Shown here piece after piece: positions 3,604-18,856 of a stretch of DNA of 18,856 nucleotides. The stretch is taken from UHGV virus genome UHGV-1698770. The stretch is one strand, 5' to 3'. This DNA is from a virus. The translations under genes were made by a program, and so were the position numbers. A model generated the notes under the pieces. The model made no database searches. It saw only the letters and a program-made list of their open reading frames with translations, and was not told where the DNA came from. Numbering within the stretch: the first letter of the stretch is position 1; each line of letters begins with the position of its first letter.

Positions 3604-3975
3604 ATGAAAGCTAAGAGTGCAAAAGACTTTTATTGCTTCCTACAATCCTATATCAATTCCGTGCAAAATGGTGAAAGGTACAACCTTAATGATGTTATCC
3701 CAACACCTTTGACATGGAGACTCAGTAAATGGCCTGAAGAAGATATTACACCAACAATCGAACAACGCACCTACAAACCCGAAATCAATATTCCAGACTC
3801 TGAGAATCTATTATATCCAATGTTCCATATTGTTGGTCTTGGAAGATTCCTTATGGATATCCAGTATGTAATTGGTAAAGGTTATAAGGTCAAAGGTATC
3901 GTTGTTGGTGATGTATCTCCGCATCACAAAGGTTATTTTAGACTAAACGCACATTTAGAGGCTAAAAAGAAATGA
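3604..3975 (+). CDS. hypothetical protein; stand-alone paralog of the N-terminal domain of the downstream Ig-repeat protein
   Basis: 123 aa, ATG with AAGGA RBS. Shares KAK..DF, WPE(E/A)DI, LLY and FLMD(I/L)QY blocks with residues 1-120 of 3972..5357 (about 30 percent identity by eye). Confidence 0.75.
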   Translation: MKAKSAKDFYCFLQSYINSVQNGERYNLNDVIPTPLTWRLSKWPEEDITPTIEQRTYKPEINIPDSENLLYPMFHIVGLGRFLMDIQYVIGKGYKVKGIVVGDVSPHHKGYFRLNAHLEAKKK

Positions 3976-5357
3976 TTAAAGCAAAGACTTACCCAGACTT
4001 CAAAGAGTTTGTAAAAGGTTTCGTTGCAAACGTAAAGGCTGGTAAGAGGTATGATTTTAGAACATATCAAGAAGCTATTTTACCACTTACCTATAGTTCG
4101 TATTGGCCTGAAGCTGATATTGCAGAAGTTAAGGAGTTTGATTACGAGCCAGACTATAAAGTTCCATTTAGTGATGAGTTGCTTTACAGCATTGGCGCTC
4201 AAATGAGAACTTCTGACTTCTTCATGGACTTACAATATGCAATTATCAATGGTAAAGACGTTGATACAGTTTATTGTGAATGGCTGGCAAGAGTTAAACC
4301 GTTCTCAATGTTGAATGCTAAGTTGAAGGATGCTATCAAGCCACCATCAATCACTCAGCAACCAACCAATCAAACAGTAAATGAAGGGGGTACACTTACC
4401 CTGAGCGTTATTGCAACTAATGCCACTGGATATCAATGGAAAAAGGGTGGTGAGGATATCACCAGCGCCACATCTGCAACCTACACAAAACAGTCTGTAG
4501 CACCCTCTGATGCTGGTTCTTATACTTGTGTTGTGTCTGGAGAGGCTGGGACAACTGTTACCTCAGATGCGGCAACAGTTACTGTCAACGCACTGCCTGT
4601 TATTACACAGCAACCTTCTAGCCAGACTATCAATGAGGGTGGAAACATCAGCTTGGGAGTGACTGCAACGGGTGCAACGGGTTACCAGTGGAAGAAAGAT
4701 GGCTCTGACATTCCTTCGGCTACAGAGGCTACCTATAGCAAGTCTGGTGCGCTGCCAGCAGATGCAGGTTCATACACTTGCGTTGTAACAGGTGCAGGTG
4801 GTTCTGTTACTTCTAGCCCTGCAACTGTCACAGTAAATGCTTTGCCAGTTATTACCAAGCAGCCAACAAATCAGGTAGTTAATGAGGGTAACTCTTTGAC
4901 ACTGAGTGTTGAGGCTACAGGTGCAGAAGGTTACCAATGGAAAAAGGACAATGTGAACATCCCTAGCGCAACTGGTGCGACTTACACGAAAGCTAACGCA
5001 GTTCCTGCCGATGCTGGTTCCTATACCTGTGTAGTTACTGGTGCAGGTGGTACAACAGCCACATCTAACGCAGCAACAGTTACTGTGAATGCACTTCCGG
5101 TAATCACTCAACAGCCAACCAATCAAGAAATCACTGAAGGTGAGACCTTAACGCTGAATGTTGTGGCAACAGGTGCGACAGGTTACCAGTGGAAGAAAGG
5201 TGAGGAAGACATCCTCGATGCAACTACTGCAACTTACACCAAAGAAGGTGCAACCACTGCTGATGCAGGAAACTACACTTGTGTAGTGACTGGCGCAGGT
5301 GGCTCTGTAACATCTAATGCGGCAACAGTTACAGTTAACCCAGCAGGGGAGGCATAA
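3972..5357 (+). CDS. Ig-like repeat protein: N-terminal domain plus four tandem ~83-aa Ig-like domains (Hoc-like decoration-type architecture)
   Basis: 461 aa. Four repeats of ITQQPTNQ..NEG..L.L.V.ATGA.GYQWKK.G..I..AT.ATYTK....DAGSYTCVVTGAGG..TS..ATVTVNALPV, with the W and Y-x-C signature of Ig folds. No signal peptide. Start overlaps upstream stop (ATGA). Confidence 0.9.
   Translation: MIKAKTYPDFKEFVKGFVANVKAGKRYDFRTYQEAILPLTYSSYWPEADIAEVKEFDYEPDYKVPFSDELLYSIGAQMRTSDFFMDLQYAIINGKDVDTVYCEWLARVKPFSMLNAKLKDAIKPPSITQQPTNQTVNEGGTLTLSVIATNATGYQWKKGGEDITSATSATYTKQSVAPSDAGSYTCVVSGEAGTTVTSDAATVTVNALPVITQQPSSQTINEGGNISLGVTATGATGYQWKKDGSDIPSATEATYSKSGALPADAGSYTCVVTGAGGSVTSSPATVTVNALPVITKQPTNQVVNEGNSLTLSVEATGAEGYQWKKDNVNIPSATGATYTKANAVPADAGSYTCVVTGAGGTTATSNAATVTVNALPVITQQPTNQEITEGETLTLNVVATGATGYQWKKGEEDILDATTATYTKEGATTADAGNYTCVVTGAGGSVTSNAATVTVNPAGEA
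4341..5340 (+). repeat. four tandem direct repeats of 249-252 bp encoding the Ig-like domains
   Basis: Repeat unit starts near 4344, 4596, 4845 and 5097; diverged but clearly alignable at nucleotide level; locally higher GC than surroundings. Confidence 0.85.
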
Positions 5358-10995: not shown

Positions 10996-11006
10996 AATAT
11001 CTTAAG

Positions 11007-11037
11007 AGCCTCCTTAATTGGGGGCTTTTTAATTTTT
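11007..11037 (+). terminator. rho-independent terminator closing the plus-strand block
   Basis: AGCCTCC-ttaatt-GGGGGCT stem (one G-U pair) followed by TTTTTAATTTTT. Confidence 0.75.
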
Positions 11038-11640
11038 ATAAAATTTTATCGGTTGTCCCAACCTCTGGGTCACCATTATATGTGAACAAAATATCTACCC
11101 TTCTTAACAACCTTCTTAATCTTACTCTCTATATATAGTTATATAGTACTATATAGTATCTTAGTAACTATCTAGTGGTCTTAATAGCCCTCTGTATAGC
11201 CCTTCTAAATAGCCATCTAAACACTCTTCTAACAAGCCTTCTAAACAACCTATACAATCATCTTAACCATCTCTCTACACACTCTTAGAAGCTCCTATAC
11301 ACCTCTTAATCTCTATGTAAGCTATGATACCCTCTATAGGTGTTCACTAGGTATTACTAAGCCTCTATATAGACTGTTTTAACAAACTTAACAGGAATAT
11401 CTTCACAGACCTTATCTCACAAGGTCTAACACGGTACTAACAAGGTATCTTATAAGCCTGTTTATGCCTGTATTTTTAAAAGACTGTCTAGGTAATTATT
11501 CAGAATTTTAAAATTTTTATAAAATAGGACTATCAAGTCATTTTTTAGGGTCTTTGAAGGAACTGAAAAATATCTGTCTAGGATGTATATCTGCTTGGTA
11601 GCCCTTAACAGCTCCCTTACAAGTACTTTGCAAAATTTTA

Positions 11641-11880
11641 AAATATCCTTAACAATCTCTTAACAGTTCTCACATTTTCTTAACAACTCTTCAAAGGTCT
11701 TAACAGATTCTTAACAGAACTAACAAGGCTGTAACAAGTTCTTAACAGTCGATACATGGTCTTTACAGAGTCTTAACAGATGACTAACAAGAGCTAACAA
11801 GTTAATTTTTAAGAGTTATTTTGTTAAGATAATTAACAAGTTCCTAACAAGTATTTAATCTTTTTAACAAGCTATTAACA
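11641..11880. repeat. array of at least 15 TAACA(A/G)-core motifs (TCTTAACAG / CTAACAAG) phased at 10-11 bp
   Basis: Core starts at 11650, 11661, 11681, 11701, 11712, 11721, 11732, 11743, 11774, 11785, 11795, 11834, 11845, 11865, 11876; successive differences are 9-11 bp or multiples. No ORF in any frame. Confidence 0.7.
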
Positions 11881-12062
11881 TGGTCACTATCTCTTTCTTA
11901 TCGTTCCCTTTCCCTCTTAGTGATTCTTTAAACATACCTCTTAAAAGCTCTCTATAGCTCTTTATAAGCTCTTTTAAGCCTCTTCCTAGTATCTATCCCC
12001 CAACTGTACAAACACCTCTTTATAGAGCTTTACAGGAGCTTTTAAGGCTATGTCAAAGACTC

Positions 12063-12170
12063 TTACAAGGCTTTTACGTGGTCTTAACAGAGATTTAACA
12101 AGGGGCTAACAAGTCTCTAACAAGCATAACTATGTAGGGATTGTTAAGAAATTGTTAAGAAAATGTTAAG
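12063..12170. repeat. second cluster of the same motif: direct copies then three inverted copies (TGTTAAG)
   Basis: Direct copies at 12085, 12096, 12107, 12118 (11-bp spacing); inverted copies starting 12142, 12153, 12164 (11-bp spacing); orientation switches around 12125-12140. Confidence 0.6.
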
Positions 12171-12181
12171 GGGGCTAGCAT

Positions 12182-12233
12182 TTACGTAACTTTATAGCCT
12201 TTTTTACGTAACTTTGAAGTAACTTTATAGCCC
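12182..12233. repeat. direct repeat TTACGTAACTTTATAGCC x2, second copy with internal GTAACTTT reduplication
   Basis: Copies at 12182-12199 and 12205-12233. Confidence 0.5.
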
Positions 12234-12598
12234 CTATAACATGCTTTTTAGTGACTAGCAAGGGGGTTGTTTAACCATTCACAAGGTACTAACCAGCCTA
12301 TAAGCTTACACCCTTATAAGATTCTTTTAAGCCTCTATAAAGCCCTGTAAAGAGCTTTTTAAGATAGGTTAATGCAATCCCTTAAGTTAGGTTGATAAGG
12401 CTGTTATAGAGCTTTATAGAGCGTTTAAATGGGCCATCCCCTTTCTGGGGTTATTGGCTTTTATTTAAGTTGATTTGATAAGAGGTTATAGAGTAGACTA
12501 TAGAGTTATTGTTTTTAAGGTATGAGATAGGTTCTATCGAATCAGTGGGAAGATTCTGGAAAGGTGAGGGAAAGGGATTGTATAAGGATTCAATAGAC

Positions 12599-12653
12599 GT
12601 AAAAAAGCCCCTTTAAATAGGGGCTGTTGAGGTATCTGGGGCTATTTAGCCCC
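12599..12653 (-). terminator. tandem hairpins forming the intrinsic terminator of the minus-strand block
   Basis: On the minus strand: GGGGCT-aaat-AGCCCC (12638-12653), then AGCCCCT-atttaa-AGGGGCT (12606-12625) followed by TTTTTT. Confidence 0.75.
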
Positions 12654-12663
12654 GCTGCGTCGA

Positions 12664-12912
12664 TTAGTTATAATCTTGTTTGTCGTAGTACAGAGAGACA
12701 ATTTTTTCACCCCAATAGTGATAAGAATAACCCTCTTTGAGAACTTCCTGTTTTGTTTCTTTCCAGAACTCGTCAGAAGGATTATAGTCTTTGATGGTCT
12801 GACTGATAAGACCTTTCACCATTTCAAAGGCGTTATCAGTGCCTGCAATGTCAAATTTAACATCCAGAGAGGAAAAACCGAACTCGTTAACAGTAGCGCG
12901 GATAGTTGCCAT
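12664..12912 (-). CDS. hypothetical protein (82 aa)
   Basis: ATG at 12912 directly downstream of a type A cassette carrying an AGGAG RBS; last gene before the terminator. Confidence 0.7.
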   Translation of the reverse strand: MATIRATVNEFGFSSLDVKFDIAGTDNAFEMVKGLISQTIKDYNPSDEFWKETKQEVLKEGYSYHYWGEKIVSLYYDKQDYN

Positions 12913-13003
12913 TTTTGAATCTCCTAGTTTAAGGGTTTATTTAGTGGGGAGGTCATCCCTCCCCGTTGATTAGTAATTTACTGCATGTTGGCGTATGTTG
13001 CAA
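12913..13003 (-). repeat. type A cassette (promoter TTGCAA-N17-TAAATT, stem-loop GGGGAGG/CCTCCCC, RBS)
   Basis: Conserved unit TTTTGAATCTCC(T)AGTTTA(A)GG..TTTATTTAGTGGGGAGG..CCCCGTTGATT. On the minus strand: -35 12998-13003, -10 12975-12980, hairpin 12946-12964, AGGAG RBS, ATG 12912. Confidence 0.7.
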
Positions 13004-13241
13004 GCCTTTTTTCGTTGTATTTTGTAAGAATCTCACAAGATAGAACATCGTACTTTGTAACCGCGTTGCCTTTGTCGAGGTCAAAAAAGCCAAACGCTTT
13101 ACCATCTTTGAATCCGACAACTTCGTAAGACTCTTTGATGATTTCACCATTGAACAAATCGCTTTCGATACGGTGGAATAATGCTACATCTTCTTTGTCA
13201 GTTGCAATTTGTAAAAGTGTGGTTAATTCTACGTTTTCCAT
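12978..13241 (-). CDS. hypothetical protein (87 aa)
   Basis: ATG at 13241 after cassette A2; its stop overlaps the -10 of cassette A1. Confidence 0.7.
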   Translation of the reverse strand: MENVELTTLLQIATDKEDVALFHRIESDLFNGEIIKESYEVVGFKDGKAFGFFDLDKGNAVTKYDVLSCEILTKYNEKRLATYANMQ

Positions 13242-13333
13242 CTTGATAACTCCAGTTTAGGACTTTATTTAGTGGGGAAGGTCATTCCCTCCCCGTTGAT
13301 TGACAATTTACAGACTTTTAAGTGTCTCGTCAA
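13242..13333 (-). repeat. type A cassette (TTGACG-N17-TAAATT, stem-loop, GGAG RBS)
   Basis: Hairpin GGGGAAGG-tcatt-CCCTCCCC at 13274-13294; -10 at 13305-13310; -35 at 13328-13333 lies inside the upstream gene's 3' end. Confidence 0.7.
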
Positions 13334-13838
13334 TATCTTTTTCAATATCTTTTAAAGTTTTTTCTAAGTTCTTGATATTGAACGTTAAACCTTCACCAAG
13401 AGTCTTAGAGTAACCACTAGGACGTAAATTATACAGTTTAATTTCTTCCACTTTAAAGAGACTAACTAACTCACCGTTTACATCATAAGCCATTGAAACA
13501 GTATTTGCAGGTGCATTGTAAAACTTGTTTAGTGACTTGATAGAGCGTTCATAAGCCATTTTATAACCGTTTAAAAGGTTTTTAACGTGGTTGTGAACGT
13601 TTTTACACTCATCTAAGTAAATCTCTAAGAATAACGGTAATAATTCCGCTACAGCTTGCATAAAGTGAGAGACTACAACGGTTGAGACATTACGACGATG
13701 AACGTAATAAGCCCCGTTTTCTGATTTGGTGATTGTTGCGAAATGTACCCCATTACAACGGAATTCGTATGTATCTTTTACAGGCTTAGACATTACAGCA
13801 TTTGAACGAATGAAGTTGATAGCTTGAAATTTGTTCAT
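13308..13838 (-). CDS. hypothetical protein (176 aa)
   Basis: ATG at 13838 after cassette A3 with GGAG RBS. Confidence 0.75.
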   Translation of the reverse strand: MNKFQAINFIRSNAVMSKPVKDTYEFRCNGVHFATITKSENGAYYVHRRNVSTVVVSHFMQAVAELLPLFLEIYLDECKNVHNHVKNLLNGYKMAYERSIKSLNKFYNAPANTVSMAYDVNGELVSLFKVEEIKLYNLRPSGYSKTLGEGLTFNIKNLEKTLKDIEKDIDETLKSL

Positions 13839-13929
13839 TTTAGAATCTCCAGTTTAGGACTTTATTTAGTGGGGAGGTTATTGCCTTCCCGTTGATTAGT
13901 AATTTACTTGTTTTGATATTTGATTGCAA
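13839..13929 (-). repeat. type A cassette (TTGCAA-N17-TAAATT, stem-loop variant GGGGAGG..CCTTCCC, GGAG RBS)
   Basis: Hairpin 13871-13890; -10 at 13901-13906; -35 at 13924-13929. Confidence 0.7.
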
Positions 13930-14058
13930 GTAATTTTTTGAGCTTATCTATAAAGAATCTTTTAAGTGAATCCCTTTTAGATAACCCCCCTCGAACAAAG
14001 TTACCAATGTCAATGGGTATTGTCAACACTTTTTTAAAAGTTTTTTGTAAGTTATTGA

Positions 14059-14400
14059 TTAACTGATGAATATTTTTTCAGGTTTTACATAGCTGATACG
14101 CTGACTTTTTAGCAGGTCATCCCAGATTAGCGCGGCGATATGGGAGTAACCGGATTCACGTAAAAGCTTCATTGTTTTACTTCTCGTTTCAAAACGGCTT
14201 GCGTAGTACTCACTATTTAAAACCGTTTTATTCCCTTCGTTGTCTACATGGATAATCTGCATCACTTGAAAGGGGCTTGTGTCCTCGCCTTTATTCCACT
14301 GCTCAAAGTATTTTAGGCACTGCATAGGTGACATCTTATCACTTACTTGAGTTGACCAAGATGAATTTTCTTTATCGGTAATTACGGTTACATAAGCCAT
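14059..14400 (-). CDS. hypothetical protein (113 aa)
   Basis: ATG at 14400 after cassette A4. Confidence 0.7.
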   Translation of the reverse strand: MAYVTVITDKENSSWSTQVSDKMSPMQCLKYFEQWNKGEDTSPFQVMQIIHVDNEGNKTVLNSEYYASRFETRSKTMKLLRESGYSHIAALIWDDLLKSQRISYVKPEKIFIS

Positions 14401-14494
14401 TTTTGAATCTCCTAGTTTAAGGATTGTACTTAGTGGGGAAGGTCATTCCCTCCCCGTTGATTGACAATTTACAGATTTTTATCAGGCTTGTCTA
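14401..14494 (-). repeat. type A cassette (TAGACA-N17-TAAATT, stem-loop, AGGAG RBS)
   Basis: -10 at 14466-14471; -35 at 14489-14494 overlaps the stop codon of the upstream gene. Confidence 0.7.
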
Positions 14495-14725
14495 GTCTTT
14501 TTCAATGATAATTTCATACTGACCATCTACGCTGTCAAAATAGATACCGTCTTCATCTTCTGTCTTAAAGTAACATTGTATATCATCACTAGCGGGATAG
14601 TCTTGTCTTGCTATCTGGCAAACTTGAATAGCATTTTCTTTACTTCCTGTAAACTCTTCAAGCCCTTTAAAATCGCATGAATGACCATTACAAATAGAAA
14701 GGATGAGGTAAACGGTTGTAAGCAT
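14492..14725 (-). CDS. small Cys-containing protein with hydrophobic N-terminus (77 aa)
   Basis: ATG at 14725 preceded by GGGAGG RBS and a hairpin. N-terminal MLTTVYLILSICNGHSC is hydrophobic but lacks basic residues and a canonical lipobox; four Cys. Confidence 0.6.
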   Translation of the reverse strand: MLTTVYLILSICNGHSCDFKGLEEFTGSKENAIQVCQIARQDYPASDDIQCYFKTEDEDGIYFDSVDGQYEIIIEKD

Positions 14726-14742
14726 GATTTAAGCCTCCCAAA

Positions 14743-14759
14743 AGCCCCTGTAAGGGGCT
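14743..14759 (-). terminator. hairpin AGCCCC-ttaca-GGGGCT followed by UUU, immediately upstream of an RBS
   Basis: 6-bp GC stem on the minus strand after the stop of 14792..15334; only three U follow, so it may be a 5' stem-loop rather than a terminator. Confidence 0.4.
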
Positions 14760-14791
14760 AAATAGTGTTTATAAGGTGATTGCATAGGTTT

Positions 14792-15334
14792 TTAGAAAAA
14801 GCTCTTTAAATCCTCTTCTGCGATGTTTCCTGTCAGTGTATCCATGATGTCACAAAAAACCTGAATACTGTCCGACTGTTGAACACTTTTAGCAAGTAGT
14901 TCTAATGTCTCATCAAGATAGTTCATATTTGGGTTATCCAGTGAAGGAAGACAAAAAGGTGAATACATAGCGTTAAACTCTGTTGTATAGACCTTTTTAA
15001 TCCAGTTTACATCAAAGTACTCTGTAAAACTTGCTACACTCGACATATTATCACAAGAATAATCATCATTTAGCTCATCATCTGGAATATCGAGTTCTAA
15101 GATAACAATATTTTGGGTTTTCATCTGGAAGGCCGCCGTAATAGTGGCGTTCCCTAGAGCTTGCTGAATGCCCTCCGATGTTATCTCTTCATCATCGTCG
15201 CCATAGATTTTATTTTCTGGATACACGTAAAAATTGCCGTCCATATCCGAACAATTCCATGCGCCTGATGGTTTATCACCGTTATTAATCAGGTTGAGGA
15301 AATTTTCTTGAGTAGTTCCGTGATAACATTTCAT
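14792..15334 (-). CDS. highly acidic hypothetical protein (180 aa)
   Basis: ATG at 15334 after cassette B1. Hand count about 19 Asp + 13 Glu versus 8 Lys and no Arg; runs DDDEE and DIPDDELNDDY. Confidence 0.75.
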   Translation of the reverse strand: MKCYHGTTQENFLNLINNGDKPSGAWNCSDMDGNFYVYPENKIYGDDDEEITSEGIQQALGNATITAAFQMKTQNIVILELDIPDDELNDDYSCDNMSSVASFTEYFDVNWIKKVYTTEFNAMYSPFCLPSLDNPNMNYLDETLELLAKSVQQSDSIQVFCDIMDTLTGNIAEEDLKSFF

Positions 15335-15422
15335 TTTTGAATCTCCAGTTTAGGATTGAGTAGTAAAGCTCTTTATCTGGGGCTTACTTTATCGAACTAT
15401 AAGCCCCTTGTAAAGTGCTTTA
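15335..15422 (-). repeat. type B cassette (stem-loop GGGGCTTA/TAAGCCCC, near-palindrome TAAAGTGCTTTA, GGAG RBS)
   Basis: Conserved unit TTTTGAATCTCCAGTTTAGGATT(G/T)AGT(A/G)GTAAAGCTCTTTATCTGGGGCTTA..TAAGCCCCTTGTAAAGT. Hairpin 15379-15407. Confidence 0.7.
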
Positions 15423-15668
15423 TTTAACTTTCTTTGAGAAAACTAGTTTGACTGCAACTGTAGGAATCTCGCCAGCAGTTGTAACCAGCATTACTTTTTG
15501 AGTAACCAACCTATAGCCGTTCTTTGCAGCGTATGCGGTGAAACGGTTAACATTGTAACTATAAGTTTTTGCCGTGTTATCTGGCATGTGGTAAATGAAA
15601 GGTTTACCCAAATTTTCTTCTTGTGTCAATAATCTACAGGTATCGGGAATGTTAAAGTAGTTCATCAT
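15420..15668 (-). CDS. hypothetical protein (82 aa)
   Basis: ATG at 15668 after cassette B2. Confidence 0.65.
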   Translation of the reverse strand: MMNYFNIPDTCRLLTQEENLGKPFIYHMPDNTAKTYSYNVNRFTAYAAKNGYRLVTQKVMLVTTAGEIPTVAVKLVFSKKVK

Positions 15669-15757
15669 TTTTAGAATCTCCAGTTTAGGATTTAGTGGTA
15701 AAGCTCTTTATCTGGGGCTTAAGTTATCAACTTTTAAGCCCCTTGTAAAGTACTTTA
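15669..15757 (-). repeat. type B cassette (stem-loop GGGGCTTA/TAAGCCCC with variant loop, palindrome TAAAGTACTTTA 15746-15757)
   Basis: Same conserved flanks as B1; loop sequence differs while the 8-bp stem is preserved. Confidence 0.7.
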
Positions 15758-15958
15758 TTTGTTATTTTTGACAACTTTTAAAACTGCAAGATAGCCTAAG
15801 CAATAAGAATCACCGAAGAGAGTCCTACCCATGAAAGAATCCTCTTTGATATCCTTTGCAGTGACAGTTTTTTCTACGCCGTGGGAAAGGACTATATCAC
15901 CAACTTTGATATCTTTGATGTGTGTAGTTTCAATGGTTAAACCATTAATAATAGCCAT
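15755..15958 (-). CDS. hypothetical protein (67 aa)
   Basis: ATG at 15958 after cassette A5; stop lies inside the palindrome of cassette B2. Confidence 0.6.
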   Translation of the reverse strand: MAIINGLTIETTHIKDIKVGDIVLSHGVEKTVTAKDIKEDSFMGRTLFGDSYCLGYLAVLKVVKNNK

Positions 15959-16050
15959 TTTTGAATCTCCAGTTTAGGACTTTATTTAGTGGGGAAGGTC
16001 ATCCCCTCCCCGTTGATGTATAATTTAGCCTATCTAAAAATCAGTGTCAA
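15959..16050 (-). repeat. type A cassette (TTGACA-N17-TAAATT, stem-loop, GGAG RBS)
   Basis: -35 at 16045-16050 (perfect TTGACA), -10 at 16022-16027, hairpin about 15991-16011. Confidence 0.75.
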
Positions 16051-16060
16051 CAAAAATTTT

Positions 16061-16465
16061 TTATAGTTCTGCATAAATTGCATCGCAGATATTACGGAAA
16101 TCGTGATTTGCCAAATTACGCTGCAACCAAGTGGCGAAAAAGTCAGCGATTGCAAAGTTAGCATCATACTCGACAGATAACCACACTTTAACAGCAAATC
16201 GGAACATTTTCAAATCTAACTCTTTATTCATTACCTTAGATTTGCCTAACATGTCGGCCATTTCATGTTGTGCACCGTCTAGCGTGATACCTGCTGCAAC
16301 GTCAGTCAATGAGTTTTTTACGCTTTCAACGTCTAAGATAACACTTTGAATCTTCCCAATAATGTTTTGCAGTGTTTCATCTGGTGCTGATGACGTGATA
16401 ACATTAATCCGGTTAACGGTCAAACGTGCTTTTAAAATTGATAATTCACGGTTATTAATAGCCAT
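16061..16465 (-). CDS. hypothetical protein (134 aa)
   Basis: ATG at 16465 (MAINN...) with TTGGAGAAC RBS; the track start at 16480 is a TTG inside the cassette. Confidence 0.7.
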   Translation of the reverse strand: MAINNRELSILKARLTVNRINVITSSAPDETLQNIIGKIQSVILDVESVKNSLTDVAAGITLDGAQHEMADMLGKSKVMNKELDLKMFRFAVKVWLSVEYDANFAIADFFATWLQRNLANHDFRNICDAIYAEL

Positions 16466-16554
16466 TTTTAAGTTCTCCAATTTAGGATTTAGTGGTAAAG
16501 CTCTTTATCTGGGGCTTACTTTATCGAACTATAAGCCCCTTGTAAAGTACTTTA
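16466..16554 (-). repeat. type B cassette (stem-loop GGGGCTTA/TAAGCCCC, palindrome GTAAAGTACTTTAC)
   Basis: 14-bp perfect palindrome at 16542-16555; hairpin about 16511-16538. Confidence 0.7.
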
Positions 16555-16824
16555 CATTAAATGCAGTTTTTTGCCTTTTACTATAATGTAACTCGATGCG
16601 CTATTGCTTTGCACATCTTGATAAATTCTGCGTAAACGTCCTTCGTAGTATACTTTCCAACTGGTTGGAATCTTTTTCCCGTATCCTGTAGCAGTTTTTT
16701 GGAGTCCTGCAACTTGCCAATTTAAGATGTGTTGCTCAGCCCGTAAATCTTCAAAGCACATCACACCGTCTACATAGTGACGCAAGGTGACATTTAAGGT
16801 GCGACCATTGTTAGTAGTGTACAT
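16552..16824 (-). CDS. hypothetical protein (90 aa)
   Basis: ATG at 16824 (MYTTNNG...) with AGGAG RBS from a truncated cassette at 16825-16849; the track GTG start at 16866 would translate the cassette. Confidence 0.65.
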   Translation of the reverse strand: MYTTNNGRTLNVTLRHYVDGVMCFEDLRAEQHILNWQVAGLQKTATGYGKKIPTSWKVYYEGRLRRIYQDVQSNSASSYIIVKGKKLHLM

Positions 16825-16849
16825 TTTAAAAGCTCCTAGTTTAAGGGTT

Positions 16850-17008
16850 TTATTTTGACAGTTCACTAATTAAGACATCAAAGATTATATCATTATCTGC
16901 TACAGTTGCAACACCAGTGATATAATCAATTTCTAGGATAACAACAACTTTCGTACATAAACCGTCATCTATATCATTCCAGACAACTTTATCACCTGCA
17001 CAAAACAT
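16850..17008 (-). CDS. small hypothetical protein (52 aa), below the ORF-track length cutoff
   Basis: ATG at 17008 directly after a full type A cassette with GGAG RBS; reads MFCAGDKVVWNDIDDGLCTKVVVILEIDYITGVATVADNDIIFDVLISELSK; stop 25 nt before the next gene's start. Confidence 0.45.
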   Translation of the reverse strand: MFCAGDKVVWNDIDDGLCTKVVVILEIDYITGVATVADNDIIFDVLISELSK

Positions 17009-17101
17009 TTTCAGAATCTCCAGTTTAGGACTTTATTTAGTGGGGAAGGTCATTCCCTCCCCGTTGATGTGTAATTTAATCTATCTAAAAACCAGTGTCA
17101 A
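17009..17101 (-). repeat. type A cassette (TTGACA-N17-TAAATT, stem-loop, GGAG RBS)
   Basis: -35 at 17096-17101 overlaps the stop of the upstream gene; -10 at 17073-17078; hairpin GGGGAAGG..CCCTCCCC. Confidence 0.75.
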
Positions 17102-17430
17102 CAGTTTTGTTTTCGTTTGCTCAATTCTTGAACAATTACAGCGTAGTAGTCTTTTAAGTCACTGACATTTAAAGCATTTATCAGAGAATTATAATCATCA
17201 ACTAACTGAAAATTATCTTTGAAGATGTCACTTATCTGATAGGTTTTCGCTTTATATCTGAAGCTCATCTCTAGCCGCTTTATTTGCTCATCACTTAAAC
17301 GCCCTAGAAAGCTCTCTACAAGGTTATTGCTAACTTGCTGTGTGATTGCCTTATTTGCTAGATTATAGGCTTTATATGCCTTATATAGCGCGAAAATGGC
17401 AATGATTGCAGTGATACCAGTCATTAACAT
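17098..17430 (-). CDS. hypothetical membrane-anchored protein (110 aa), one N-terminal hydrophobic helix
   Basis: Start overlaps the upstream gene by 7 nt; N-terminal MLMTGITAIIAIFALYKAY is hydrophobic. Confidence 0.65.
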   Translation of the reverse strand: MLMTGITAIIAIFALYKAYKAYNLANKAITQQVSNNLVESFLGRLSDEQIKRLEMSFRYKAKTYQISDIFKDNFQLVDDYNSLINALNVSDLKDYYAVIVQELSKRKQNC

Positions 17431-17720
17431 GGTGTTTCCTCTTTACGTGATACTTTGCCACTTACAGTTATCTCATAGGATTCTAATAAATCGCTTTTAG
17501 ACTTTACTGGACTTTTAAAAGTGTCATCATAGATATTGACTTGCAATACAGGTTTTTTATATTCCCTACAACTATTCCATAAGCAAATCACTACACGACG
17601 GCCTTTTATTTTGCCGTGTAACCATTCCATAACATCATGACTATTCCTTGATGTTTCAATGAAATCAATTTTGTTGAGTAACTTGCTTAGGTTTTCACGG
17701 ACTTTATTTGATAATTTCAT
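17424..17720 (-). CDS. hypothetical protein (98 aa)
   Basis: ATG at 17720 preceded only by the RBS-proximal part of the cassette (17721-17735); no hairpin or promoter. Confidence 0.65.
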   Translation of the reverse strand: MKLSNKVRENLSKLLNKIDFIETSRNSHDVMEWLHGKIKGRRVVICLWNSCREYKKPVLQVNIYDDTFKSPVKSKSDLLESYEITVSGKVSRKEETPC

Positions 17721-17735
17721 TTTTGAATCTCCAGT

Positions 17736-17948
17736 TTAGGATAAAATAGTAATCGTAAAATTGTAATGACCATTAAGCTGATAAACATAACAGTTAGAAA
17801 ATACACCAACTAACCGAGGTTTTCCATAAATTTTCATGCGCTCTTTAATCTCTTTGAGAGATTTCAAACCTGTAAGGTCTTTATTGAAATAGTCATCATC
17901 TGTGAATAGGACTTGTGAGGCGGTTTTCAGTTTTTGATTAATGTTCAT
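17736..17948 (-). CDS. hypothetical protein (70 aa)
   Basis: ATG at 17948 after cassette B4; its 3' codons overlap the truncated cassette remnant. Confidence 0.6.
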   Translation of the reverse strand: MNINQKLKTASQVLFTDDDYFNKDLTGLKSLKEIKERMKIYGKPRLVGVFSNCYVYQLNGHYNFTITILS

Positions 17949-18036
17949 TTTTGAATCTCCAGTTTAGGATTTAGTGGTAAAGCTCTTTATCTGGGGCTTA
18001 AGATACCAACTTTTAAGCCCCCTGTAAAGTACTTTA
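17949..18036 (-). repeat. type B cassette (stem-loop GGGGCTTA/TAAGCCCC with variant loop, palindrome TAAAGTACTTTA 18025-18036)
   Basis: Hairpin 17993-18021; conserved flanks. Confidence 0.7.
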
Positions 18037-18327
18037 TTTGTTAATTTTCAGCTTTGCATAACTTCTCATTGTACGAATGGGGGATGTTAATGCTACGCGT
18101 CTAATGTATGCCTTTTTCGTGTATACATTTGTCTTCCCGATAGTGTTTACACATGTAAAAAGGTTTATCGGTGAATTTTTTAACTTCAACTGTTTATCAA
18201 CCTTCACGCCCCACCTTACAGCAGATTGTTTTCCGTTGTCAACCACTTTCCCGCATAACTTTTTAGCCATAACGCGAGCGTCATCACGAGTCTTTGCAGT
18301 AATTACAACGTTTTTGATAATAGCCAT
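18034..18327 (-). CDS. hypothetical basic protein (97 aa)
   Basis: ATG at 18327 (MAIIKNVV...) with TTGGAGAAC RBS; the track start at 18342 is a TTG inside the cassette. Confidence 0.65.
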   Translation of the reverse strand: MAIIKNVVITAKTRDDARVMAKKLCGKVVDNGKQSAVRWGVKVDKQLKLKNSPINLFTCVNTIGKTNVYTKKAYIRRVALTSPIRTMRSYAKLKINK

Positions 18328-18416
18328 TTTTAAGTTCTCCAATTTAGGATTGAGTGGTAAAGCTCTTTATCTGGGGCTTACTTTATCGAACTATAAGCCC
18401 CTTGTAAAGTACTTTA
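18328..18416 (-). repeat. type B cassette (stem-loop GGGGCTTA/TAAGCCCC, palindrome TAAAGTACTTTA 18405-18416)
   Basis: Near-identical to B1 and B3. Confidence 0.7.
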
Positions 18417-18797
18417 TTTGTTAATTTTGAAGATAGTTACATAACCATCGCTGCCGATGATTTGTGATGCTCCAGCTTTTTCTACTTGATAGCCCATATT
18501 TTCAAGATGGTAAACAGCATCATCATAACCATATGCGCCGCCCTGATAACGTCTCTTATCACATCTTACTAATACCTTTCCACGTCCTGCCAGTGCATTT
18601 AGTACGACTTTTTCACTTGAAAGTGTACCATCTAACATGGTTGCCGTGTAATGGTTGATTCTATTCCCGTTTACATCATACTTAAAATTGAATGCGTGAA
18701 CAACGATAATGTTACCTTTAAAATTCTCATCAAGTGACTTCTCCAGTGCGTTGCGAAAGTTGTCTTTGTTGATGAATTTAGGTGCACGATATGCCAT
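18414..18797 (-). CDS. hypothetical protein (127 aa)
   Basis: ATG at 18797 after cassette A7 with GGAG RBS. Confidence 0.7.
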   Translation of the reverse strand: MAYRAPKFINKDNFRNALEKSLDENFKGNIIVVHAFNFKYDVNGNRINHYTATMLDGTLSSEKVVLNALAGRGKVLVRCDKRRYQGGAYGYDDAVYHLENMGYQVEKAGASQIIGSDGYVTIFKINK

Positions 18798-18856
18798 TTT
18801 TGAATCTCCAGTTTAGGACTTTATTTAGTGGGGAAGGTCATTCCCTCCCCGTTGAT
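18798..18856 (-). repeat. type A cassette, truncated by window end
   Basis: TTTTGAATCTCCAGTTTAGGACTTTATTTAGTGGGGAAGGTCATTCCCTCCCCGTTGAT, matching the A2/A6 copies. Confidence 0.7.

Follow-up and report, generated by a model that had tools for sequence, protein, structure and literature searches.

The Array and Its Phage

The repeated promoter/stem-loop/ribosome-binding-site (RBS) units described here are located in UHGV-1698770, a virus genome stretch of 18,856 nucleotides (nt) that was analysed at its full length and is called the window below. They are found in an array of 16 open reading frames (ORFs), all on the minus strand within 18797–12664 and designated f00 to f15 in the order of reading. 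Among them, seven ORFs are preceded by the unit of main interest, the type-A cassette, five by a second unit, type B, and two by the RBS module only; of the other two, one is translationally coupled, overlapping the gene before it, and one has its own hairpin and Shine–Dalgarno (SD) sequence. An earlier interpretation made from the letters alone, the sequence-only reading, had given every gene of the array its own promoter/stem-loop/RBS cassette, and this cannot be maintained, as type A is present on only 7 of the 16 ORFs.

The window belongs to a Felixounavirus. In a megablast search of 50,697 phage records the best match was phage KhF2 (94% identity over 85% of the window), and 261 records matched, nearly all of them labelled as Escherichia, Salmonella, Shigella or Citrobacter phages or as Felixounavirus; every matching record whose taxonomy was inspected is a member of the Ounavirinae. 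Read on its minus strand, the window runs as the plus strand of Felix O1 does, and its array (12664–18856) corresponds to the ORF14–23 region of that phage. The array is located downstream of rIIA/rIIB and of a macro-domain phosphatase gene, and it is closed by a minus-strand intrinsic terminator at 12606..12625, which the terminator scan and Table 2 of the Felix O1 genome paper (PMC3185647) identify as t23; in the scan, this element (12625–12606) is the only strong terminator of the array block. In Felix O1 the block is flanked by the terminators t13 and t23, with no other promoter inside (PMC3185647), and therefore the genes within it need internal promoters. On the other strand, the plus-strand unit stops at its own terminator (11004–11029), and no plus-strand genes or promoters enter the array.

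Anatomy and Distribution of the Type-A Cassette

First of all, the repeat finder, the fuzzy motif search and the alignment agree on seven type-A copies of ~95 bases each, all on the minus strand, as the sequence-only reading had counted them. The segment formed by ATCAAC and the hairpin starts at 18856, 17068, 16017, 14461, 13896, 13300 and 12970. The order of the parts is invariant: the −35 box, 17 nt, the −10 hexamer TAAATT, 4 variable nt, ATCAAC, the GGGGAGGG/CCTTCCCC hairpin, the leader, the RBS and ATG. After the hairpin, the leader consists of the A-rich stretch ACTAAATAAAGT and the RBS module, either CCTAAACTGGAG or CCTTAAACTAGGAG, with the ATG 7–9 nt further on; GGAG lies 8–10 nt before this ATG in all seven copies, and the ATG opens a minus-strand ORF each time. 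The 32-nt core ATCAAC-hairpin-ACTAA gave 5 matches with at most 3 mismatches against 0.00 expected (200 shuffles), the two copies outside this set having 1–2-nt deletions in the hairpin, and TAAATT-N4-ATCAACGGG gave 6 matches against 0.01 expected, the promoter of the seventh copy lying beyond the end of the window.

That copy is cassette 1 (18795..18856), with ATCAAC at 18856–18851, the hairpin at 18850–18830, then the leader with GGAG and the ATG at 18797–18795; in relatives, it has TTGACT-17-TAGTAT in front. Cassette 2 (17006..17101) is composed of the −35 box TTGACA (17101–17096), the −10 hexamer TAAATT (17078–17073), ATCAAC (17068–17063), the hairpin (17062–17042) and the ATG (17008–17006). 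In cassette 3 (15956..16050), the −35 box TTGACA is at 16050–16045, the −10 at 16027–16022, the hairpin, with the loop GAUGA, at 16011–15991 and the ATG at 15958–15956. Cassette 4 (14398..14494) has the −35 box TAGACA (14494–14489), the −10 (14471–14466), the hairpin (14455–14435), the RBS allele CCTTAAACTAGGAG and the ATG (14400–14398). Cassette 5 (13836..13929) has the −35 box TTGCAA (13929–13924), the −10 (13906–13901), a weaker hairpin GGGAAGGCAATAACCTCCCC (13890–13871), which contains an A·C mismatch in the sense RNA and reaches only −7.1 kcal/mol, and the ATG (13838–13836). Cassette 6 (13239..13333) begins with TTGACG (13333–13328), followed by the −10 (13310–13305), the hairpin (13294–13274) and the ATG (13241–13239), and cassette 7 (12910..13003) begins with TTGCAA (13003–12998), followed by the −10 (12980–12975), the hairpin GGGGAGGGATGACCTCCCC of 7 Watson–Crick pairs (12964–12946) and the ATG (12912–12910).

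The −35 boxes TTGACA (two copies), TTGCAA (two copies) and TAGACA, which had been listed in the sequence-only reading, are thus borne out, with the 17-nt spacer to TAAATT everywhere, and only TTGACG has to be added; the distance from the −10 to the hairpin, given there as 8–10 nt, is fixed at exactly 10 nt in all copies. It is also true that the promoter is largely embedded in the preceding gene. In two copies the −10 contains the upstream stop codon, TAA forming the first three bases of TAAATT (13310–13308 and 12980–12978), and in two others the −35 contains it, TAG being part of TAGACA (14494–14492) and TGA part of TTGACA (17100–17098).

Among the phage records searched, matches to the 67-nt type-A unit are confined to the Ounavirinae, with the exception of one anomalous record, that of Staphylococcus phage SA1 (GU169904.1, 147 kb). 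It holds five type-A copies at ~92% identity, which suggests that the record includes Felix O1-like sequence via contamination or chimeric assembly. Nor are the repeats placed at random in relatives, in keeping with the sequence-only reading: in Felix O1 (86 kb), the units occur only at 8.4–12.06 kb. In 347 kb of related sequence, a covariance model built from the seven window copies picked out 83 copies; every one is on the gene strand, and the other 56 kb of Felix O1 contain none. The Rfam 15 scan of the window gave no match on any type-A unit; it returned two tRNAs and two sub-threshold matches, one of which is mir-980 on the plus strand, over a type-B hairpin.

Promoter Conservation and the Predicted Start

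In order to be compared on a wider basis, 79 distinct type-A copies, representing four genera, were gathered from Felixounavirus, Mooglevirus and IMG/VR contigs. The first IMG/VR pattern, ATCAACGG..CCACTAA, was too loose, most of its 120 stretches being chance matches, and an nhmmer profile was used as the filter. The sigma70-like character of the promoter, already proposed from the window, is supported by these copies: the T, T and G of the −35 box are present in 79, 69 and 77 of the 79, respectively, with neighbouring bases varying, and the T, A and final T of the −10 in 78, 78 and 79. The −10 occurs as TAAATT, TAAAGT, TAATAT, TAGTAT or TATAGT, A+T makes up 78% of the 17 nt upstream of the −35, and the promoter register is fixed relative to the hairpin, while the spacer sequence differs among promoter families. 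As judged from these copies, selection on the sigma70 contacts would produce this pattern, and simple repeat identity would not. TAAAGT in the leader, downstream of the hairpin, was considered as an alternative promoter and rejected: there is no −35 at 16–18 nt and no TG extension, and the hexamer is lost in variants.

Transcription usually begins 7–9 nt after the −10, and here these positions are occupied by C-A-A of ATCAAC; such a start would leave 2–3 unpaired nt ahead of the stem, which comes 11 nt after the last base of the −10. In Erwinia phage Pistou (Kolesnikvirus), the promoter is TTGACA-18-TAAAAT and the first A of ATCAAC is the 7th base after the −10, a layout that fits ATCAAC as the putative transcription start region. 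In Felix O1, end-point reverse transcription PCR (RT-PCR) placed the peak of ORF21 and ORF22, both behind type-A units, at 5 min.

The Hairpin: Structure, Variation and Possible Roles

The main form of the hairpin has 8 pairs, one of them G·U, and a folding energy of −13.7 kcal/mol; nearly all copies fall between −10 and −15 kcal/mol. When the full leader is folded together with 30 nt of coding sequence, the hairpin is the dominant predicted structure in 7 of 7 copies. Leaders of distant genera were collected by the pattern ATCAAC, 14–40 free nt and the RBS module, with Suspvirus SUSP1 added, and they were folded one by one, the plain MAFFT alignment of hairpin variants having misplaced indels and being unusable for pair counts. 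In this way, 210 related leaders yielded 53 distinct hairpins in the same slot, and only 2 distinct leaders lack one. Their three outer pairs are G-C without exception; pairs 4–5 are G-C, A-U, C-G, G·U or U·G, and 39 different loops occur, GNRA tetraloops included. In 36 of the 53, the hairpin is more stable in the sense RNA than in the antisense RNA (Wilcoxon p = 2e-4, a value that is indicative only, the sequences being related).

Since the GenBank records of KhF2 and KhF3 carry plus-strand "Rho-independent terminator" features exactly over type-A hairpins (in KhF2 at 16846–16866, 18005–18025, 19563–19583, 20428–20448 and 23077–23097; several in KhF3), it could be supposed that the hairpins are rho-independent terminators of the plus strand. 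This is very improbable. The plus-strand tail GTTGATTG has 4 T in 8, the terminator scan calls no type-A hairpin on either strand, and the plus-strand fold of the main type is weaker (−10.3 against −13.7 kcal/mol), because G·U becomes A·C there. Moreover, the plus-strand unit has already terminated at 11004–11029, no gene or promoter of that strand leads into the array, and 83 of the 83 model-found copies are co-oriented with the genes. The opposite-strand features in the two records are probably a mis-annotation by a terminator finder.

A terminator on the gene strand deserves closer attention. The hairpin might act as a terminator, an attenuator or a 3′-end protector for the transcripts of the upstream gene and insulate each gene in this way. 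The polyG/polyC stem-loop of an RB49 unit was found to cut lacZ expression as strongly as rrnB T1 (PMC2839356), and what type A, type B and Kolesnikvirus have in common is a G/C hairpin just past the upstream stop and ahead of the next SD; such a role could also explain why the hairpin precedes the start in type B and in Pistou. However, the tail after the type-A stem, ACUAAAUA, contains only 2 U in 8 nt and no U-tract; the hairpin sits between its own promoter and its own gene, which an efficient terminator would silence; and the only strong terminator of the block is the one at its end. On balance, this explanation is considered unlikely for type A. The type-A hairpin is most likely a 5′-terminal mRNA-stabilising stem-loop and not a terminator, because it starts 2–3 nt after the predicted start and has no U-tract; promoter activity, start site, stabilising role and early timing are inferred.

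The inverted repeat could also be a binding site at +3 to +23, that is, either a DNA operator by which a phage protein shuts off the early promoters or the RNA site of a translational or stability regulator, through which the early genes would be controlled as one set. In Felixounavirus, the stem sequence itself is conserved beyond pairing, with no covariation, its position just past the start site is the classic location of an operator, and all copies carry the inverted repeat, as a regulon would predict. On the other hand, the loops and inner stem have been exchanged in relatives such as SUSP1 (GGGGC..GCCCC, GGGA..UCCC, GGGC..GCCC; 39 loops), while the slot and the pairing are kept, which argues against sequence-specific recognition beyond a GGG/CCC clamp. 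The G·U pairs also make the DNA half-sites unequal, and no candidate regulator was identified. A binding site is therefore regarded as improbable, and the stabilising stem-loop is retained as the preferred role of the hairpin in what follows.

In Pistou, a G/C hairpin of the form GAGGGG-TTAAAAT-CCCCTC is found upstream of 5638 and 5942, where it overlaps the −10 and precedes ATCAAC, while the type-A hairpin of Felixounavirus comes after ATCAAC. That is to say, the hairpin would have crossed the predicted start site during the evolution of the subfamily.

Recombination between Cassettes

The oriented array was compared with 11 relatives by blastn, and collinear matches were chained. Among the 12 genomes, the block differs in gene content between the cassettes, and the proposal that the genes are shuffled by recombination is upheld: in 7 of the 8 distinct events in the Felixounavirus relatives, both breakpoints lie inside cassettes, which make up 18.8% of the array. 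Between two type-A units, f14 was lost in Felix O1, radambza, nataliec and UAB_Phi87 (overlap in the relative 56–63 nt), f08–f11 in Felix O1 (68 nt) and f12–f13 in KhF3 (96 nt). Between two type-B units, f09 was lost in finno, radambza, nataliec, ESCO56 and UAB_Phi87 (92–100 nt). RBS modules bound the 149-bp insertion of f05 in the window, which is absent from 8 of the 11 relatives (seven Felixounavirus and Moogle; 33–36 nt), as well as the loss of f01–f02 in radambza (25 nt). In KhF2, KhF3, finno, nataliec and UAB_Phi87, f02 is replaced by an unrelated 170-aa gene, from the ATG after the type-B unit to the next RBS module, and the replacement in ESCO56 has one end outside a cassette.

In the six simple deletions or insertions, one hybrid copy of the repeat remains, and the flanking alignments overlap by 25–100 nt, which is the repeat length; this is the signature of crossing-over between direct repeats. 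Other traces are of the same kind. The same gene is found behind type A, type B or an RBS-only module in different phages, f15 stands behind three different promoters, and the rare stem variant GGGGCGGG occurs before two different genes in finno and likewise in nataliec. As read from these comparisons, recombination is the best-supported claim of the analysis.

Duplication, too, can generate tandem arrays of similar upstream regions, and the repeats could then be passive relics of the tandem duplication of one ancestral gene with its upstream region, with no role of their own. This origin is hardly credible, since the 16 genes fall into 16 unrelated families and separate PHROGs, the leaders are more conserved than the coding DNA (against Moogle, the leader is 87% identical and adjacent coding DNA 67–75%), and conservation is concentrated on the promoter hexamers, the stem and the SD.

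Proposed Function of the Type-A Cassette

Taken as a whole, the type-A unit is, with reasonable though far from full confidence, read as a self-contained early-expression cassette with a 5′ stabilising hairpin, which also provides a portable homology patch for gene shuffling. The host sigma70 RNA polymerase would read each unit, the promoter of which mostly occupies the 3′ end of the gene before it. The predicted start is within ATCAAC, 2–3 nt ahead of the 8-bp G/C hairpin, so that the mRNA would begin with a 5′-terminal stem-loop, by which 5′-end-dependent decay by RppH and RNase E would be blocked; then would follow the short A-rich leader, the GGAG Shine–Dalgarno sequence, ATG and an unrelated small gene. 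According to the work cited in PMC3997798 (Emory 1992, Bouvet and Belasco 1992, Arnold 1998), 5′-terminal stem-loops stabilise E. coli mRNAs, as in the ompA and papA leaders. The presumed transcribed leader of ~60 nt is nearly identical before many genes, its 3′ half being common to the type-B and RBS-only units, and it would therefore be a portable patch of homology between neighbouring genes. Recombination within it would delete, insert or replace whole genes and re-pair any gene with the promoter carried by its new upstream gene.

Several observations weigh against this explanation. As for the hairpin, the sequence-only reading had proposed covariance across copies as a check, and the outcome is divided: the stem slot persists in distant genera, but in the model-fitted alignment of Felixounavirus, Mooglevirus and related copies the helix, although 94.4% paired, contains not one compensatory change, and shuffled columns do at least as well, and thus the structure among those copies rests on conservation and energy only. 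The pairing register in distant genera is uncertain owing to indels; 17 of the 53 distinct hairpins fold better in the antisense direction, the window copy at 13890–13871 among them; and one SUSP1 leader has no hairpin, which makes the hairpin dispensable for at least that gene. Since indels shift the register, a hairpin in the gene-strand RNA has moderate support, short of proof. In addition, type B and Kolesnikvirus place a similar G/C hairpin upstream of the predicted start, so the 5′-protective role cannot apply to those units, and the hairpins may share another role, either in read-through transcripts or at the DNA level. As for timing, ORF19 and ORF23 of Felix O1, which also stand behind type-A units, peak at 25 min by the same crude RT-PCR, and a study of transcription starts, 5′ ends or RNA-seq in Felix O1-type phages was not found in the searchable literature. 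As for shuffling, the intergenic DNA of the array is nearly all cassette, and viable breakpoints would therefore concentrate there without any special mechanism.

There is, besides, a small chance that the shared leader is a cis-acting RNA signal by which a changeable set of early genes is put under one post-transcriptional control, an "RNA regulon". Under this proposal, the signal would consist of the GGG/CCC-clamped 5′ hairpin together with the SD-occluding stem UCC(U)/(A)GGA, and it would be read by a phage or host factor.

Type-B Cassettes, RBS Modules and Other Elements of the Array

The five type-B cassettes, also on the minus strand, are located at 18325..18415, 17946..18035, 16463..16553, 15666..15756 and 15332..15421. 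The first has a TTTACA-17-TAAAGT promoter with an embedded GGGGCTTA/TAAGCCCC hairpin, followed by the RBS module common to type A (repeat family D1); the −10 is TATCTT in the second and TAACTT in the fourth. The type-B hairpin is flanked by CTTTA..TAAAG, which lengthens its stem beyond an internal loop of 3x3, and the RBS module follows throughout this family. The type-B stem of Erwinia phage Pistou is GGTGTTTA/TAAGCACC, a double change from G-C to U-A, and the −10 slot keeps TAnnnT in SUSP1 and Pistou despite different loops.

The RBS-only modules, on the same strand, are at 17718..17745 (CCTAAACTGGAGATTCAAAAATG, family D4), before the 98-aa gene, and at 16822..16851 (the CCTTAAACTAGGAG allele, family D8), before the 90-aa gene, where the module forms the right-hand edge of the f05 insertion. 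The RBS module exists as two alleles, for example CCTAAACTGGAG at 17740–17729 and CCTTAAACTAGGAG at 14421–14408, which are set apart by a paired insertion, one T following CCT and one A in front of GGAG. With it, the small stem predicted over part of the SD, UCC(U)-UAAACU-(A)GGA, becomes longer by one U-A pair. When the alleles were counted in 26 related loci, one was present 134 times and the other 64 times, and no intermediate with a single insertion occurred.

Two further minus-strand elements lie inside the array. In the 130-nt gap between f12 and cassette 5 (14058–13930), there is a separate, good promoter match, TTGACA (14026–14021), 17 nt and TAACTT (14003–13998), followed by GAGGGGGG and no convincing ORF; Sf18 and pEC-M719 annotate an ORF of 39–46 aa there. 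At 14759–14733, directly before f11, there is the hairpin AGCCCCTTACAGGGGCT with TTTTGGGAGG after it; this resembles a weak terminator, the tail of which enters the SD of f11, and it would be the sole terminator-like element inside the array.

The Cargo Genes

The genes of the array, all on the minus strand, are small. Behind type-A cassettes stand f00 (18414..18797, 127 aa; cassette 1; phrog_4495, unknown function), f05 (16850..17008, 52 aa; cassette 2), f08 (15755..15958, 67 aa; cassette 3), f12 (14059..14400, 113 aa; cassette 4), f13 (13308..13838, 176 aa; cassette 5), whose distant homologues reach Erwinia phages, f14 (12978..13241, 87 aa; cassette 6) and f15 (12664..12912, 82 aa; cassette 7), the last gene of the array. 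Type-B cassettes 1 to 5 precede, in that order, f01 (18034..18327, 97 aa; phrog_5089), f02 (17736..17948, 70 aa), f07 (16061..16465, 134 aa), f09 (15420..15668, 82 aa) and f10 (14792..15334, 180 aa). RBS-only modules precede f03 (17424..17720, 98 aa) and f06 (16552..16824, 90 aa), the latter being behind type A in KhF2 and Moogle. The coupled gene is f04 (17098..17430, 110 aa), which overlaps the end of f03 and carries the promoter of type-A cassette 2 in its 3′ end, and f11 (14492..14725, 77 aa) is the gene with its own hairpin and GGGAGG upstream.

The 16 proteins fall into 16 separate families, that is to say, the cargo is not paralogous. They had been described from the window as uncharacterised, and rightly so: 15 of the 16 match PHROG families of unknown function and f05 has no PHROG match. 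In Pfam, 0 of the 16 reach the cut-off, and sequence searches of the PDB gave no significant relative for the two largest. A role of the cargo in host takeover or anti-defence is a guess.

Neighbouring Regions of the Window

Between the two convergent gene blocks, at ~11030–12600, there is a stretch of 1.6 kb without credible ORFs. It holds ~20–30 short repeats of the CTTAACA/CTAACAAG type (families D5 and D13) in addition to motifs of the CTTTATA/AAGAGCTTT type, and it is found at the same position in Felix O1, Moogle and SUSP1. The stretch may serve as an origin or as an array of sites for a DNA-binding protein.

At the other end of the window, a minus-strand gene (478–1893) encodes a 471-aa protein that relatives annotate as vWFA, DUF2828 or "RNA-binding protein" and that looks to be of the Ro60 (TROVE) type. 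It is adjoined by tRNA-Glu and tRNA-Pro (154–312), the first two genes of the phage tRNA cluster; Ro-type proteins are usually paired with a Y-RNA-like partner. On the plus strand, at 3972–5357, an ORF of 461 aa contains four tandem-like repeats of 249–252 nt (family D7). Relatives have it annotated as a tail protein or an immunoglobulin I-set domain, and the number of repeat copies apparently varies among phages.

Comparison with Known Systems

In T4-type phages, promoter-early stem-loops (PeSLs) are composed of an AT-rich region, a sigma70-like promoter, a polyG/polyC stem-loop with G·T pairs, and SD plus ATG; they cluster before ORFans in hyperplastic regions, with indel breakpoints in the units, and five subclasses are distinguished by the position of the stem-loop, one stem-loop having been shown to terminate (PMC2839356, PMC4122927). 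They are known from RB49/phi1, PST/T4 and nt-1/KVP40 (Arbiol et al. 2010, PMC2839356; Comeau et al. 2014, PMC4122927). The sequence-only reading had matched the array to these units, and the match holds for composition, position and breakpoints; the phage, however, is not T4-type and there is no sequence homology, so the units are analogues and not homologues.

As in PeSLs, a composite unit is situated directly upstream of small ORFs of unknown function in a variable block (7 type-A and 5 type-B units in 6.2 kb), the stem-loop has a G·U/G·T pair, and SD plus ATG form the 3′ end of the unit. Type B, in which the stem lies between the −35 box and the −10 hexamer and overlaps the latter, corresponds to the commonest PeSL subclass; type A is nearest to the subclass "downstream of the −10", with its stem at ~+3, probably beyond the predicted start. 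Unlike in PeSLs, the type-A stem-loop is predicted to be transcribed into the mRNA of its own cassette and is unlikely to terminate, the upstream stops often lie inside the −35 or −10, whereas PeSL stops lie in the AT-rich region, and the long leader of ~60 nt is near-verbatim in all units, with a single RBS module throughout.

In Felix O1 itself, direct repeats of 39 bp and 57 bp were listed but not interpreted, and they are not in the promoter list (Whichard et al. 2010, PMC3185647). Of these, the one of 39 bp, TTGACACTGGTTTTTAGATAGATTAAATTACACATCAAC, corresponds to the promoter part of the type-A unit, and the one of 57 bp is type B. The genome papers of wV8, UAB_Phi87 and AYO145A contain no description of the units, and in the searchable literature no paper on a Felix O1-type phage mentions PeSLs.

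The type-A unit would resemble the leaders of ompA (hp1) and papA in having a stable hairpin a few nt from the predicted 5′ end and, after it, an A/U-rich leader with a strong SD. Those leaders belong to single genes and their function was shown by half-life; here, in contrast, the leader is repeated before many genes and its function is deduced from position. The T7 gene 10 leader (GGGAGACCACAACGGUUUCCC..AAGGAG) also has a 5′ stem-loop; it closely resembles the type-A leader in layout and length, and its 5′ arm is rich in G and forms G·U pairs.

Significance for Felix O1-Type Phages

In summary, the type-A unit is a real, non-random regulatory repeat, by which the PeSL-like class of promoter/stem-loop/SD units is extended to another phage lineage. 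If this is true, recombination linkers of the promoter/stem-loop/SD kind are not peculiar to T4-type phages and had an independent origin in Felix O1-type phages. In the case of an RNA regulon, a gene captured between two leaders would be expressed and regulated at once. For annotation, the result would correct the records in which the hairpins are called antisense terminators. For engineering, the leaders would serve as natural landing pads for early-expressed inserts, and the unit as a compact part for E. coli consisting of promoter, 5′ hairpin and RBS. Felix O1-type phages are widely used in the typing and biocontrol of Salmonella and E. coli. The shuffling of genes between cassettes would explain why the small early gene block differs between isolates that are otherwise 90–95% identical, and the interchangeable genes of this block would be prime candidates for host-specific functions.

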